A stretch of DNA of 64,000 nucleotides from Deferribacterales bacterium. GTDB lineage: Bacteria > Chrysiogenota > Deferribacteres > Deferribacterales > Geovibrionaceae. This document shows positions 27,708 to 52,952 of this stretch, one piece after another; the first letter of the stretch is position 1; each line of letters begins with the position of its first letter. The stretch lies in the NCBI GenBank assembly GCA_050253075.1, contig JBFWJS010000002.1:512001-576000 (forward strand). The letters run 5' to 3'. The translations under genes were made by a program, and so were the position numbers. The notes under the pieces are model-generated. The model saw only the letters and a program-made list of their open reading frames with translations. It did not search any database and was not told the origin of the DNA.

Positions 27708-29780
27708 TTAGTTAGTTTTTATAATCTCTTCTGCGATGTTGTTAGGTACTTGCTCATAGTGGTCGAAGTGCATTGTATATGTTGCACGTCCCTGTGTGAT
27801 AGATCTGAGCTGTGTAGAGTATCCGAACATTTCTTTAAGCGGAACCATACACTTAATTACCTGAGCACCACCGATCATGTCCATACCTTCAACCTTTCCT
27901 CTTCTTGCGCTGAGGTCACCCATAACGTCACCTGTGTAATCGTCAGGAGTAACAACTTCAACTTTCATAACAGGCTCAAGGATAACAGGGCCTGCTTTCT
28001 TAGAAAGGTCTTTGAAAGCCATAGAAGCAGCAATTTTGAATGCCATCTCGTTAGAGTCGACATCGTGGTAAGAACCATCGTAAAGAACTGCTTTAAGGTC
28101 TTCAACAGGGTATCCTGCAAGGCAACCGTTCTGAAGTGCTTCTTCGATACCTTTCTCGACAGCAGGTACGTATTCCTTAGGAATAGAACCACCAACGATC
28201 TTGTTCTCGAATATGAAGCCCTGACCGGGTTCAAGCGGATGAAGCTCGATACAAACGTGTCCGTACTGACCGCGGCCACCGGACTGTTTAATGTATTTAC
28301 CTTCACCGGATACTGACTTAGTGATAGCTTCACGGTAAGCAACCATCGGGTTACCAACGTTAGCTTCAACTTTAAACTCTCTCATCATACGGTCTACGAT
28401 GATCTCGAGGTGGAGCTCACCCATACCGGAGATGATTGTCTGACCTGTTTCCTGATCAACTTTAACTCTGAAAGAAGGGTCTTCCTGAGCGAGTTTCTGA
28501 AGCGCCTGAGAAAGTTTCTCCTGGTCAGCCTTTGATTTAGGCTCAACAGCAACGGAGATAACCGGATCAGGGAAAGTCATAGACTCAAGGATGATCGGCT
28601 TGTCAGGGTCACACAGAGTGTCACCAGTTGTTGTATACTTAAGACCTACGGTAGCGCAAATATCGCCAGCGAAGATCTCTTTGATCTCTTCACGGTTGTT
28701 GGCGTGCATCTTAATAAGACGGCCAACACGCTCTTTCTTGTCTTTTGTAGAGTTGACAACATAGCTTCCTGCCTCAAGGTGTCCTGAGTAAACACGGAAG
28801 TATGTAAGCTGACCCATGTAAGGGTCTGTCATAATCTTGAACGCAAGAGCAGAGAAAGGTGCGCTGTCATCAGCTTTTCTTTCTTCTTCGATCTCTGTAT
28901 CAGGGAGTATACCCTTGATAGCAGGAACGTCGAGCGGAGAAGGCATGTAGTCGATAACTGCGTCGAGAAGAGGCTGTACGCCCTTGTTCTTGAACGCTGT
29001 ACCGCAAAGTACAGGGATGAAAGAAATGTTGATAACAGCCTTTCTGATACCTGCTTTGATCTCTTCTACAGTGAGTTCCTCACCTTCGAAGTATTTCTCC
29101 ATAAGCTCTTCGTCAGATTCAGCAACAGCTTCGAGAAGTATGCCTCTGTACTCTTCCGCTTTGTCGGCGTATTCAGCAGGAATATCAACGACATCGAAAG
29201 AAGCACCGAGCTCCTCACCGTTCCATACAACAGCTTTCATCTCAACGAGGTCGATAACGCCCTGGAAGTTCTCTTCAGCGCCGATAGGGAGCTGAATAGC
29301 AACAGGGTTAGCACCGAGCTTCTCTTTGAGCTGCTTAAGTACGTTGTAGAAATCTGCGCCTGTTCTGTCCATTTTGTTGACGAAAGCAACTCTAGGGACT
29401 CTATATTTATCGGCTTGTCTCCATACTGTTTCAGACTGAGGCTGAACCCCGCCCACAGCACAGAAAACTGCACAAGCTGAATCGAGCACTTTAAGGGAAC
29501 GCTCAACTTCGATTGTGAAGTCAACGTGTCCCGGTGTGTCGATGATGTTAATGCGGTGTTCTTTCCAGAAACACTGAGTAGTAGCGGAAGTAATTGTAAT
29601 ACCTCTCTCCTGCTCCTGCTCCATCCAGTCCATTGTCGCATTACCGTCGTGCACTTCACCGATCTTGTAGTTTACGCCAGTGTAAAAGAGAATTCTTTCT
29701 GTTGTAGTTGTTTTACCGGCATCGATGTGAGCCATGATACCGATATTTCTCTGCAAATCGAGAGCGACTTTTCTAGCCAC
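27708..29780 (-). CDS. fusA: Elongation factor G
   Basis: [29 protein letters not shown]. Confidence 0.99.
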
Positions 29781-48959: not shown

Positions 48960-51050
48960 ATGACCAATAAAATACTCAGGGGGGCTTTTGCCCCTCTGCT
49001 TTTATTCATAATACTTTTTGCGTTTTCCGCCTCGGCGGGCATCATCTCAGACATGCAGGTAAAGAACCTCTTCCCAAAGGTGACAGACCTCGAAGGCGGC
49101 GCAGAGCTGTGGCTCAATACAGGCATTCGCAGCAAGACAGAGGAGAACCACACGGTTTTCTCCACCACATATTCATTCTACAGCGGTAAAGATAAGAAGA
49201 TGATGAACATCGTCCGTAAAGGACAGTATGAGACAAACATCGCTCTTTACTCATTCAACAACTTTGTCGATGCTTCAATGTATTTCCACGAGCTGACAAA
49301 GGACGCACCGAAAAACCGCAGTCAGCAGGTGCGATTCGGCGAAAGGGGGCTCTTCTTCCTTTATCCGAAATCCGGCTATATAAACGATGCGGATTTTTAC
49401 CTTGTTTTCATCAATAAGACATTCGTGGTGTGGATACATTCCAACGACGGATTTGCACTCATGGACATAGCAAACCCTATAAACGACAACCTCGATGCCT
49501 TCATAATGAACAACACAGAGATGTACCTTATAAAGAAACTCCATCTGGAAGCCTATGCCGAAGGATATGAGATACAGACGAAAGCCATCGAATTCACAAA
49601 CGAATTCCCCGCAAGCATAAAGGTCAGCGGAAAGGTGTTCACAAAAGACCTCGACCCTATGCCTGCGGCCACCGTCAACATACTCGAGACAGGCGACAGC
49701 ATCCTCACGGACAGCAGCGGCTATTTCGAACACACCATAGAGCTCGACGGCATCAGCGACATAGAGCTGGCGGAAAACTTTTACCTAGACTATGACAAAG
49801 CGTCGAAGATGACCATGTTCAAAGGCGGTTTCTTCGAAAGCGGGCTGAAGTATAACTCCGACGGGAAACTGCGAAACCAGATATGGAAGCTGGAGACAGC
49901 GGGCGAAAAGGTCTTCGGCACTTCATACGTCAAAACATCTCAGGGCTATAAAGGCTATCAGATAAAAGGTACGGCAACGGACGAAGGGATCGAGCTGACC
50001 CTCGACTGCAGGCGGGCCGGCTCAGACTTCGGCTGTGAGCAGATATTCAAAGGAAAGCTGAAAGGGAACGGCATCGAAGGCGAATGGAGCGGGACAGGCG
50101 GCGGAGGCGTATTCAAAGCCGACATGGGCGAATACCGTCCCGTGGAGCGCAAGATCATACTCACACAAAAGACCGCACAGACAAAGACTTTCGGCGTAAA
50201 TGCCGAAGGCAAACTGCTGAAATCATCCGAAAACCTGCTGAACATAGGCGCCAGCCGTGACAGCATAGCAATGATATATGTAAAGCCTAAGAGCGAGGCT
50301 CTCGAGATAGACCCTATAAAGAACATCTCGGCGAAGCTGGTGCTGACCCACCTGCCGGACGACCAGAGCGGACGGATATCACTCTTCAAATACAGTCTGC
50401 GCTATGTAGGAGCACAGGCATACCTCGGCGACAGTAGCTACGCAGGGCAGATATACCCCAGCGAAGAGCCGTATAAGCTGGAGATAGACATAACCGACAT
50501 GCTCGAAAAAGGCGACGGAAGCATCGTCATAGGCGGCGTTCCCGAGGCGGGGAGCACGGGCAACCATAACTTCTCCACCTCTCAGGCGATGTACGACACC
50601 CTGAAGCCATACATAGTGATAACAGAATATGCCAAAGACGGCGGAAAGCAGACAGTGATAAAGCCTTTTGTCATGATAAACGAGCCGAAGAAATCCGCAG
50701 ACCTCATAGGCGACAGAAACCGCCCGGGGAAAGACGGCACAGACGACTATTGCTATGACGCAGTTTTCTCATATCCGGGTAAAAAGCTGACAGGATTCGA
50801 GCTGGAGATAACAGGCGACATCAAGCGCAGGTACAATACCAATCCACTTGACATTTACCCACTGGTAGGATTTATTAATACCAGCGGCAGCCTGCTGAAC
50901 GACAGTAAGGGAGCCCTTGATCACACTTTTGAAAAGAATGCCGAAAAGCTCGGCATATGCATTAACGGCTCTTACGTTCCGACAAAAACAGACAGAATCT
51001 CATACAAATATTATATAGACGGCAGACCTGTGGAAGGACTGCTGAATTAG
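48960..51050 (+). CDS. Secreted multidomain hypothetical protein (carboxypeptidase-regulatory-like domain in the middle)
   Basis: Signal peptide (AFSASA); VSGKV...D..P...ATV.I......TD..GYF; 696 aa. Confidence 0.7.
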   Translation: MTNKILRGAFAPLLLFIILFAFSASAGIISDMQVKNLFPKVTDLEGGAELWLNTGIRSKTEENHTVFSTTYSFYSGKDKKMMNIVRKGQYETNIALYSFNNFVDASMYFHELTKDAPKNRSQQVRFGERGLFFLYPKSGYINDADFYLVFINKTFVVWIHSNDGFALMDIANPINDNLDAFIMNNTEMYLIKKLHLEAYAEGYEIQTKAIEFTNEFPASIKVSGKVFTKDLDPMPAATVNILETGDSILTDSSGYFEHTIELDGISDIELAENFYLDYDKASKMTMFKGGFFESGLKYNSDGKLRNQIWKLETAGEKVFGTSYVKTSQGYKGYQIKGTATDEGIELTLDCRRAGSDFGCEQIFKGKLKGNGIEGEWSGTGGGGVFKADMGEYRPVERKIILTQKTAQTKTFGVNAEGKLLKSSENLLNIGASRDSIAMIYVKPKSEALEIDPIKNISAKLVLTHLPDDQSGRISLFKYSLRYVGAQAYLGDSSYAGQIYPSEEPYKLEIDITDMLEKGDGSIVIGGVPEAGSTGNHNFSTSQAMYDTLKPYIVITEYAKDGGKQTVIKPFVMINEPKKSADLIGDRNRPGKDGTDDYCYDAVFSYPGKKLTGFELEITGDIKRRYNTNPLDIYPLVGFINTSGSLLNDSKGALDHTFEKNAEKLGICINGSYVPTKTDRISYKYYIDGRPVEGLLN

Positions 51051-51058
51051 AGGAACAG

Positions 51059-51205
51059 ATGGAAGATTATATCGGGTTGATCATCTTCGTGGTTCTGGTC
51101 TTCGTACTGGCTAAGCTAAAGCCGGGCGCAGGCTGAGGCCCAAATGCAGACAGCTGCAGTATCGAGGATCGATACAAAAAACAGAAAAAAGAAAAAAAGA
51201 AGTAA
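51059..51205 (+). CDS. Candidate 48-aa single-TM selenoprotein (UGA at 51134-51136); 25 aa if UGA is a stop
   Basis: MEDYIGLIIFVVLVFVLAKLKPGAG-U-GPNADSCSIEDRYKKQKKEKKK; GAGGA RBS; TAA directly abuts the hemW GTG; hairpin at 51159-51175. Confidence 0.6.
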
Positions 51206-52297
51206 GTGAAAGGTTTATACGTACATATCCCCTTCTGCCGTAATAAATGCGCTTATTGCGGATTCTACTCCGAGACAGACAGCTATGGGTCACAGCTCGA
51301 ATACTTTCGGGCTATGATAACAGACCTGAAATCGAGGGAAAAGAAACGCTACGACTCCATATATATCGGAGGCGGGACACCGTCCACGGCGGATAAGAAG
51401 ATGCTGGCGGCATTCACGGACATAGTGTCCGTTCTGCAGGCGGGGGATTCGAAAGAAACCACAATAGAGGCAAACCCAGAGAGCATCGACGAAGATTTCT
51501 GCCGTATGCTCCACGATTATAAATTCAGCCGTATCAGTATAGGCTGTCAGAGCACCGACGACGGCGTGCTTAAAATGCTCACACGGATACATTCCGCAGC
51601 CGACATCACAAAGGCATACGACACGGTGCGCAGGTTCTGCCCCGACATAGCGGTAAATCTGGACATGATGTACGACATCCCCGGCACAGATTTCGACACA
51701 AGCCATAAAACGATGAAAGACATCATAGCCATGGATCCCGAGCATATATCCGCATATACCTACAGCCACGACACCGACTTTCTCAAAGCGACGGACGACG
51801 ACACGACGGACTTTATGATTGTCCGTGAGGGGCTGGAGGACGCAGGGTATATCAAATACGAGATATCCAACTTCGCCAAAAAAGGGCACGAGAGCATACA
51901 TAACATAAACTATTGGCAGCTTGGGGATTATGACGGCATAGGCGCATCCGCATGGAGCCTTATAAACGAAAAAGACAGACGCATACTCAAAGGCAAGACT
52001 GACAATATAAAAGAATATATAGCAGACCCCACCGCTTTCAAAGAGGTGGAGATAACCGAAAGCCCGAAGATGGAGTACGAGAAGATAGTCTTCGGACTGC
52101 GTATCATCGGCGGTGTAGACGTCGGAACGATCTGCATGAATTTAGATGCAGAGATAAAGGAAAAATTGTATAATTTATTAATACAGCTAGCAGAACAGGA
52201 GCTGATAACATGGGATGGATCAAAGGCGGCATTAACAAAAAAGGGCGAGCTCTTGCTCGACTCTGTGCAATATTTATTATGGGAACAGCTGCCGTAG
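51206..52297 (+). CDS. hemW: Radical SAM heme chaperone HemW (HemN-like)
   Basis: YVHIPFC..KC.YC.F, IYIGGGTPS, EANP, YEISNF, HNINYW (HNxxYW HemW motif). Confidence 0.85.
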   Translation: MKGLYVHIPFCRNKCAYCGFYSETDSYGSQLEYFRAMITDLKSREKKRYDSIYIGGGTPSTADKKMLAAFTDIVSVLQAGDSKETTIEANPESIDEDFCRMLHDYKFSRISIGCQSTDDGVLKMLTRIHSAADITKAYDTVRRFCPDIAVNLDMMYDIPGTDFDTSHKTMKDIIAMDPEHISAYTYSHDTDFLKATDDDTTDFMIVREGLEDAGYIKYEISNFAKKGHESIHNINYWQLGDYDGIGASAWSLINEKDRRILKGKTDNIKEYIADPTAFKEVEITESPKMEYEKIVFGLRIIGGVDVGTICMNLDAEIKEKLYNLLIQLAEQELITWDGSKAALTKKGELLLDSVQYLLWEQLP

Positions 52298-52539
52298 CAG
52301 CATATGCCGGATGTGCCGGCGACTGCATGACATGCCATCCAAAGCTGGAAGGGAGCACTGACCATCTGGCACTGAAAAACTGTATTTCCTGTCACACGCC
52401 TTCGACAGAAAAACTCTTTGAATTTGGCGGCGGCGCAGCAGAGGAATGCGGAAACGACTGCTTTCAGTGTCACCAGCAGTGGCCTGCGGACGGGAATCAC
52501 GCTCCGCTCGACACATGCCAGAGCTGTCACCAGAAATAG
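52210..52539 (+). CDS. Small periplasmic tetraheme c-type cytochrome
   Basis: Four CxxCH motifs (CMTCH, CISCH, CFQCH, CQSCH); signal peptide ending AAYA; start uncertain. Confidence 0.85.
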   Translation: MGWIKGGINKKGRALARLCAIFIMGTAAVAAYAGCAGDCMTCHPKLEGSTDHLALKNCISCHTPSTEKLFEFGGGAAEECGNDCFQCHQQWPADGNHAPLDTCQSCHQK

Positions 52540-52547
52540 GGGGAAAA

Positions 52548-52952
52548 ATGCACATAGCCTGGAACGAATGCCTCATCAGCGGAAATACGACCATCGACTC
52601 ACAGCATCAGGAGCTCTTTACCCACATCAATTCATTTTTTAACAGTATTGACAAAGAGTTCAACCACGAGACGACCGTCCGCACACTTAACTATCTGGTA
52701 AAATACGTCCGCTTTCACTTCGGCACTGAAGAGGAGCTCATGGAAAGCAGCGACTATCAGGAACTGAAAGTACATAAAGCAGCACACAGAAAGCTGGTCG
52801 ACTCGCTCATGGTCTGCTATAAAAAGCTCATCGCTGAAGGGAACGCCATGTGTGTTAAAGATGAGCTGACGGAGCTTTTACAGGTGTGGTTCGTAGACCA
52901 CATCATGACATACGACCAGAGGCTTGCCGCTTTTCTAAAATATAATGGCTGA
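52548..52952 (+). CDS. Bacteriohemerythrin
   Basis: W......G...ID.QH..L, Y...HF..EE..M, Y....HK..H, W...HI...D. Confidence 0.92.
   Translation: MHIAWNECLISGNTTIDSQHQELFTHINSFFNSIDKEFNHETTVRTLNYLVKYVRFHFGTEEELMESSDYQELKVHKAAHRKLVDSLMVCYKKLIAEGNAMCVKDELTELLQVWFVDHIMTYDQRLAAFLKYNG

Follow-up and report, generated by a model that had tools for sequence, protein, structure and literature searches.

In known bacterial selenoprotein genes with a SECIS element inside the reading frame, selenocysteine (Sec) is inserted at an in-frame UGA that is followed, within the coding region, by a hairpin with G first in its loop, and decoding involves SelB. In PMC13188914, the bacterial SECIS model comprises a loop of 3–9 nt with a G among its first two nucleotides, a stem of 4–16 bp, a location 16–37 nt after the UGA, and an energy of at most −7.5 kcal/mol. 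Among the small selenoproteins catalogued there are KCU-star/DUF466, UXX-star, NF041197 (dual CXXC), and the hypothetical proteins DG, DW, and DF. Selenoproteins K and S, as described in bioRxiv 10.1101/2021.05.15.444318, have one hydrophobic helix, carry Sec in a flexible segment on the C-side of the helix, and lack a thioredoxin fold.

The window (the whole stretch of Deferribacterales DNA that was analysed, 64,000 nt) contains a small gene at 51059..51205 (+ strand), in an apparent intergenic gap, which would encode 48 residues if its UGA is read as Sec. It shares with the known genes the in-frame UGA, the G-first hairpin in the coding region, a 3-nt loop, a 7-bp stem, a spacing within 16–37 nt, a host with Sec machinery, and the existence of Cys homologues. 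In contrast to those genes, it is small (approximately 45–60 residues in the family) and without domain or family match, and its SECIS fills much of the tail and dictates an apparent CSIEDRY motif. Like the small catalogued selenoproteins, members of this family are often cut at the UGA in annotation and can be found by Cys/Sec pairing, but the motifs listed for those proteins differ, and a further difference is that Sec here closely follows a membrane helix at the N-terminus.

The single hydrophobic helix, the Sec in a flexible C-side segment, and the lack of a thioredoxin fold are also common to the small protein and SelK/SelS. Many members of the order have Gly-Gly-Gly before Sec, which is similar to the surroundings of Sec in SelK/SelS. 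However, the small protein is half the size, has no SelK family match in Pfam scans, carries Sec 5–6 residues after the helix (position 26 of 48, as compared to U92 of 94 in SelK), and has its SECIS in the ORF rather than in a 3' UTR; the features that define SelK or SelS were not found in it. FeoB-associated Cys-rich membrane proteins (PF12669) are tiny, with one helix, basic residues, and Gly/Cys after the helix. The small protein shares this build, yet it has no Pfam match, one or two reactive residues instead of a Cys cluster, and no conserved feo context.

Reading frame and hairpin of the small gene

The elements that the earlier note had described in the window are present. A Shine-Dalgarno-like GAGGA at 51050..51054 lies 4 nt 5' of the ATG at 51059 and overlaps the TAG of the upstream gene; purine-rich sites also precede the homologous starts. 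The frame opens with a hydrophobic helix (residues 3–20, 51065..51118), predicted to be a single membrane span, and reaches an in-frame TGA at codon 26 (51134..51136), which is conserved among homologues and is the putative Sec codon. A further 22 codons remain open up to a TAA at 51203–51205 that directly abuts the hemW GTG, with zero gap at 51205/51206, and residues 40–48 form, in translation, a Lys-rich tail (51176..51202). The perfect hairpin GTATCGA-GGA-TCGATAC occupies 51159..51175, with a 7-bp stem and a GGA loop (51166–51168) 29 nt past the UGA. Two of the described features hold in the window but do not extend across the family: a second, 5-bp hairpin at 51145..51158 is real but is not conserved among relatives, and the U-x6-C pairing with Cys33 (51155..51157) is the local form of what is U-x4-C in most homologues.

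The hairpin fits the SECIS model of PMC13188914 in its 3-nt loop, 7-bp stem, and 29-nt spacing, and the 72 nt starting at the UGA fold at −13.1 kcal/mol as a whole region (z −3.76; 1 of 200 shuffles was as good). The 11-mer at its core is unique within the 3.04-Mb genome. Genome-wide, 133 of 115,781 TGA triplets have a G-first triloop with seven Watson-Crick pairs 15–32 nt downstream. Using our own rule-based version of the published model, rather than bSECISearch, a SECIS-type hairpin was found in 29/29 members from the order, in 63 of 70 members from a second phylum, and in 14 of 18 divergent members, although the top-ranked members were recovered partly via residues encoded by the hairpin, and their share is thus not independent. 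As background, such a hairpin occurs at 122 of the 1677 TGA codons that close long frames in the window's genome and at 20 of 142 in flanks.

Across 29 sequences of equal spacing, both sides of the stem change in six of the seven pairs and 86% of cells pair; the covariation score is 0.396, as compared to 0.197 for shuffled sequences, a comparison that kinship among the sequences can inflate, and 0.07–0.10 for slid partners. The six codons under the hairpin (S-I-E-D-R-Y) show zero synonymous changes over the 29 gene-bearing genomes of the order, and the sole substitution within them turns an A-U pair into G-U and thus keeps the pairing. In contrast, the Cys codon and the codons upstream vary freely. 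CSIEDRY was therefore rejected as a protein motif, being imposed by the SECIS. Insertions and deletions in the spacer between UGA and hairpin are multiples of 3. The loop lies 29 or 23 nt from the UGA in this family, and 29 nt in the window, versus 17 nt in selD and a peroxiredoxin-like gene of the window's genome, but remains inside the 16–37 nt range of the model. Small extra hairpins, variable among the 12 genes of the window's own family and without a consistent counterpart in the other 17, might shorten the effective distance between UGA and loop. This natural series of SECIS elements, with loops approximately 16–29 nt from the UGA and covariation, offers compact material for studying the spacing rules of SelB.

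Conservation, spread, and the selenocysteine machinery

Matches to selA, selB, and selD above curated cut-offs were found in the window's genome together with a tRNA-Sec, whose anticodon is UCA; the tRNA-Trp has CCA. Among homologues with a name, records of Denitrovibrio come nearest (80–87% identity). The selD gene (G000:C1:670927-671841, − strand) carries an in-frame TGA of its own, with a GG-first loop 17 nt downstream. The same arrangement, again with a GG-first loop at 17 nt, occurs in a gene near position 29075 of G000:C4 (− strand), which we take to be peroxiredoxin-like from its motif.

The DNA-level sampling covered 61 genomes of the order Deferribacterales and 301 genomes of a second phylum, inferred to be Desulfobacterota. 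In the order, a full-length small gene with one in-frame TGA is present in 29 of the 61 genomes, from five families. The TGA is at the identical codon in all 29, the frame behind it stays open for 20–32 codons, and the partner position is a Cys at +5 in 17 genes and at +7 in 12. The gene largely tracks selA, which occurs in 28 of the 61 genomes: 27 have both and 31 have neither, the order's genomes being related and hence not independent, so that no P value is attached. The exceptions are one selA-positive genome, in 310 contigs, without the small gene, and two genomes, 87% and 73% complete, in which the gene is present but neither selA nor selB was detected. Five selA-less genomes were examined at the same slot, and in all five kdsA begins 3–24 nt after the upstream gene, with no small gene and no hairpin. 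Weak matches in a selA-less genus proved to be chance frames or a 40-aa lipoprotein-like ORF that has no relation to the family. This ORF, with two Cys, appears to be unannotated and lies at approximately position 1500 of L216–L218 in three genomes of that genus, behind a gene that is presumably surE-like.

A GTDB scan returned 18 loci, four of them outside the order and all four in selA-positive genomes. With one of these four as query, matches (E up to 0.02) were obtained in 138 of the 301 genomes of the second phylum, and a profile built from Cys-form proteins alone matched 136 of the 301. The family is thus matched in 138/301 genomes sampled from the second phylum and present in 27 of the 28 selA-positive genomes of the order. 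From the second phylum, 90 loci were examined (the 30 top-ranked, 40 sampled at intervals further down, and 20 that were weak or short and chosen to expose exceptions); the homologous codon is TGA in 88, TAA in one, and the remaining one is a chance match. The consensus there is W-x8-P-[KR]-x-G-x-x-T-U-x4-C. Frame 0 is open for at least 13 codons in 70/70 loci, which is partly built in by the search, versus 35 and 32 of 70 for the other frames. Since selA is near-ubiquitous in this phylum (279/301), its co-occurrence with the small gene carries no information there. Eight gene-positive genomes lack a selA match, and all eight have selB. Two selB matches above cut-off were seen in each of genomes G072, G184, and G201.

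The two branches align at a profile probability of 97.8%, and still at 97.2% after the 21 of 70 members sharing the hairpin-derived CSIEDRY motif were dropped. Their homology therefore does not depend on that motif alone, and an intermediate locus points the same way: L209 (G068:C368, near 3780) combines an N-terminus of the second-phylum type with a window-like G-U-G-A-N-A-D-S-C segment. The partner Cys that the earlier note had proposed holds for most members and is dispensable in others: 68 of 70 typical members have it at +4 to +8, a share partly due to how they were selected, whereas among 18 divergent members it lies there in only 3 and is absent from 4. Sec would therefore be the invariant residue. 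The TAA-bearing locus, L213 (G176:C11, near 52800), lies in a selA-positive genome with the downstream Cys in frame, and is possibly a decaying gene. In a metagenome hairpin scan, 22 matches comprised 13 family genes with TGA and 9 unrelated sequences; no relative of the small gene was found among viral contigs.

Among the best 120 of 353 database matches, 104 proteins end just before the Sec site, 14 have Cys there, one has Trp, and one has another residue. A profile of the order alignment, searched against 1.84 billion representatives, gave three matches, two with Trp at the Sec site and one by chance. The Trp-bearing homologues (P0002, P0003, and P0071) may be gene calls made under a code with TGA=Trp. 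The Cys-form profile revealed no Cys form in the 301 genomes of the second phylum, and Cys forms are thus known from database proteins only. Where database homologues are named, nearly all are called 'hypothetical' or 'uncharacterized', and one 29-aa homologue is labelled a transporter, a name at odds with its size. Scans of members against Pfam and NCBIfam 20.0 gave no score above a family cut-off, only weak generic membrane-helix matches being returned.

The features by which a selenoprotein gene is recognised were thus found together, i.e., sel genes, a conserved UGA with an open frame behind it, a hairpin of the SECIS model, and Cys homologues, and they support the earlier proposal of a 48-aa Sec protein. 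The internal UGA, the covarying G-loop hairpin, and the co-occurrence with the Sec machinery make it very likely, indeed close to certain, that codon 26 is read as Sec. Table 1 of PMC13188914 (2026, 119 families) lists no family with comparable architecture or motif. The filter described in PMC12013277 asks that the top ten hits include either a known Sec homologue or two with Cys, which is a plausible reason for this family having been missed. No description of the family was found in the literature covered, mostly open-access papers. Overall, the small gene is real and belongs to a widespread, uncatalogued family that very likely encodes selenoproteins by a known decoding mechanism. If so, a class of membrane micro-proteins would join a bacterial selenoproteome of mostly soluble redox enzymes, and many 'hypothetical' entries of 29–30 residues (104 of the best 120 listed) would be corrected.

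Topology, proposed function, and alternative readings

An AlphaFold model (pLDDT 69.6, pTM 0.34) contains only the helix at residues 3–20. Lys and Arg are richer on the C-side of the helix than on the N-side in 27 of 29 members from the order and 66 of 70 from the second phylum, and the positive-inside rule links such a bias to membrane topology. An N-out/C-in orientation is thus probable, and would place the Sec at the cytoplasmic surface of the membrane. Lipidation of the Sec as in a lipoprotein does not agree with these sequences. A lipoprotein signal has a basic n-region and an h-region that runs straight into the lipobox, but here the N-terminus is acidic (mean 0 K/R, 1.4 D/E) and basic residues stand between the helix and Sec.

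In the proposed mechanism, SelB-GTP-Sec-tRNA would bind the hairpin loop and insert Sec at the UGA, giving a 48-residue protein that would cross the inner membrane once and expose its selenol on the cytoplasmic face. The selenol might then cycle between a reduced and an oxidised or persulfidated state, together with the nearby Cys or, where this is absent, with a partner protein, and would be reset by thioredoxin. The cycling step and the reset, which are suggested by the motif and the neighbouring genes, are favoured only slightly. At 15 of 70 loci in the second phylum, a neighbour is a thioredoxin, AhpC/TSA, DsbD/CcdA, DsrE/DsrC, CMD, or YgaP-like gene, and at 9 more of the 70 it is an ArsR or zinc-ribbon gene, counts that come from 80 hand-chosen ORFs among 215 neighbours in related genomes, without a random background. 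It is these redox-type neighbours that point to a membrane-tethered selenol in thiol or sulfur redox chemistry; in the order, the neighbours (the exported protein, kdsA, hemW, and alaS) are not redox genes. The whole chain of Sec decoding, a single-span membrane protein, and a cytoplasmic thiol/sulfur redox selenol is given a probability of roughly 0.6, judged from sequence. A peptide of this length is directly synthesisable and assayable. In a broader proposal, this protein ranks among the most widespread selenoproteins in anaerobic members of Desulfobacterota and Deferribacterales and was missed because of its tiny size; it would be a bacterial functional counterpart of SelK/SelS, work through Sec alone rather than a Sec-Cys pair, and be deleted rather than converted to Cys when the Sec machinery disappears from a lineage of the order. 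This proposal is tentative and somewhat less likely than not.

The selenol could instead serve in metal handling: Sec, with or without the Cys, would bind soft metals or metalloids, and the protein would act at the membrane as their sensor, sink, or chaperone. A U-x4..6-C motif could chelate, the short flexible tail suits binding, and an ArsR-family regulator is encoded immediately upstream at 5 of 70 loci, a MerR-family one at 2. However, sulfur species are also sensed by ArsR-family proteins, the scan of 80 neighbour ORFs brought out no metal exporter, and divergent members can do without the partner Cys, so that metal binding is considered unlikely. The position of the read-through stop suggests a different role, that of a selenium-sensing leader, in which the next start would be accessible only to ribosomes that have decoded the UGA, so that translation of the next gene depends on selenium supply. 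In 12/12 loci of the window's own family this stop lies −20 to +17 nt from the next start (gaps of 0, −4, 17, 3, −4, 2, and −4, and five times −20), and thus abuts or overlaps it. Yet at 11 of the order's 29 loci no long gene on the same strand begins within 120 nt, the downstream genes vary and have no selenium link, Cys forms exist, and the membrane helix is conserved, all of which makes a leader improbable.

Decoding itself could also be questioned. If the UGA were a true stop, the gene would encode a membrane peptide of 25–30 residues, followed by an RNA hairpin or DNA palindrome of another role, as could be read from the 104 of the best 120 database entries that end there, the one TAA case, the poor conservation of the tail past the hairpin, and the near-invariance of the 17-nt palindrome in the order. 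But a stop would drift to TAA or TAG, and TGA is kept in 29/29 and in 88 of 89 true members; Cys stands at the Sec position in 14 homologues; frame 0 is open in 70/70; and the small gene is lost together with selA. The stem covaries as its sequence changes, which argues against a DNA-binding site. Nor was a terminator or promoter called at the hairpin, where the A-run is on the wrong side for a terminator, and Rfam gave no credible match (best E 4.1, 16 bits versus a cut-off of 70). Termination at this codon is accordingly very improbable. Reading of the UGA as Trp or Cys, or its bypass by a +1 frameshift, might account for the three database proteins with Trp at the site and for a +1 frame that is open for at least 13 codons in 29/29 genes of the order. 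It is at odds with the UCA anticodon of the tRNA-Sec and the CCA of the tRNA-Trp, with a +1 frame open in only 35 of 70 second-phylum loci, with Cys homologues that align in frame 0, and with the tracking of selA by the gene, and is the least credible of these alternatives.

Genes surrounding the locus

Upstream of the small gene lies a gene for a predicted exported protein of 696 aa (48960..51050, + strand) with no family above cut-off. It is a conserved neighbour, preceding the small gene in 23 of 29 loci and kdsA in selA-less genomes. Downstream, hemW (51206..52297, + strand) encodes a radical SAM heme chaperone (TIGR00539 over cut-off). The adjacency to hemW that the earlier note had stressed is true in the window, but kdsA stands between the small gene and hemW in 9 of 12 own-family loci, and hemW is therefore a recent neighbour. 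A functional link to hemW was rejected, as the two are adjacent in only 3 of the 12 loci and kdsA is elsewhere in the window's genome. Seven sequencing runs with 7–11% of the words covered either a piece of a relative's hemW or, in a run that is probably DNA, a 52-nt piece, and gave no sign of expression of the small gene.

Two further small genes follow hemW. An ORF of 109 aa at 52210–52539 (+ strand), with four CxxCH motifs and weak Pfam matches, appears to encode a small multiheme cytochrome c; its first 88 nt are shared with the 3' end of hemW, and the same pairing is present in the selA-less genus. Downstream of the cytochrome, at 52446–52952 (+ strand), is a gene for a single-domain hemerythrin.
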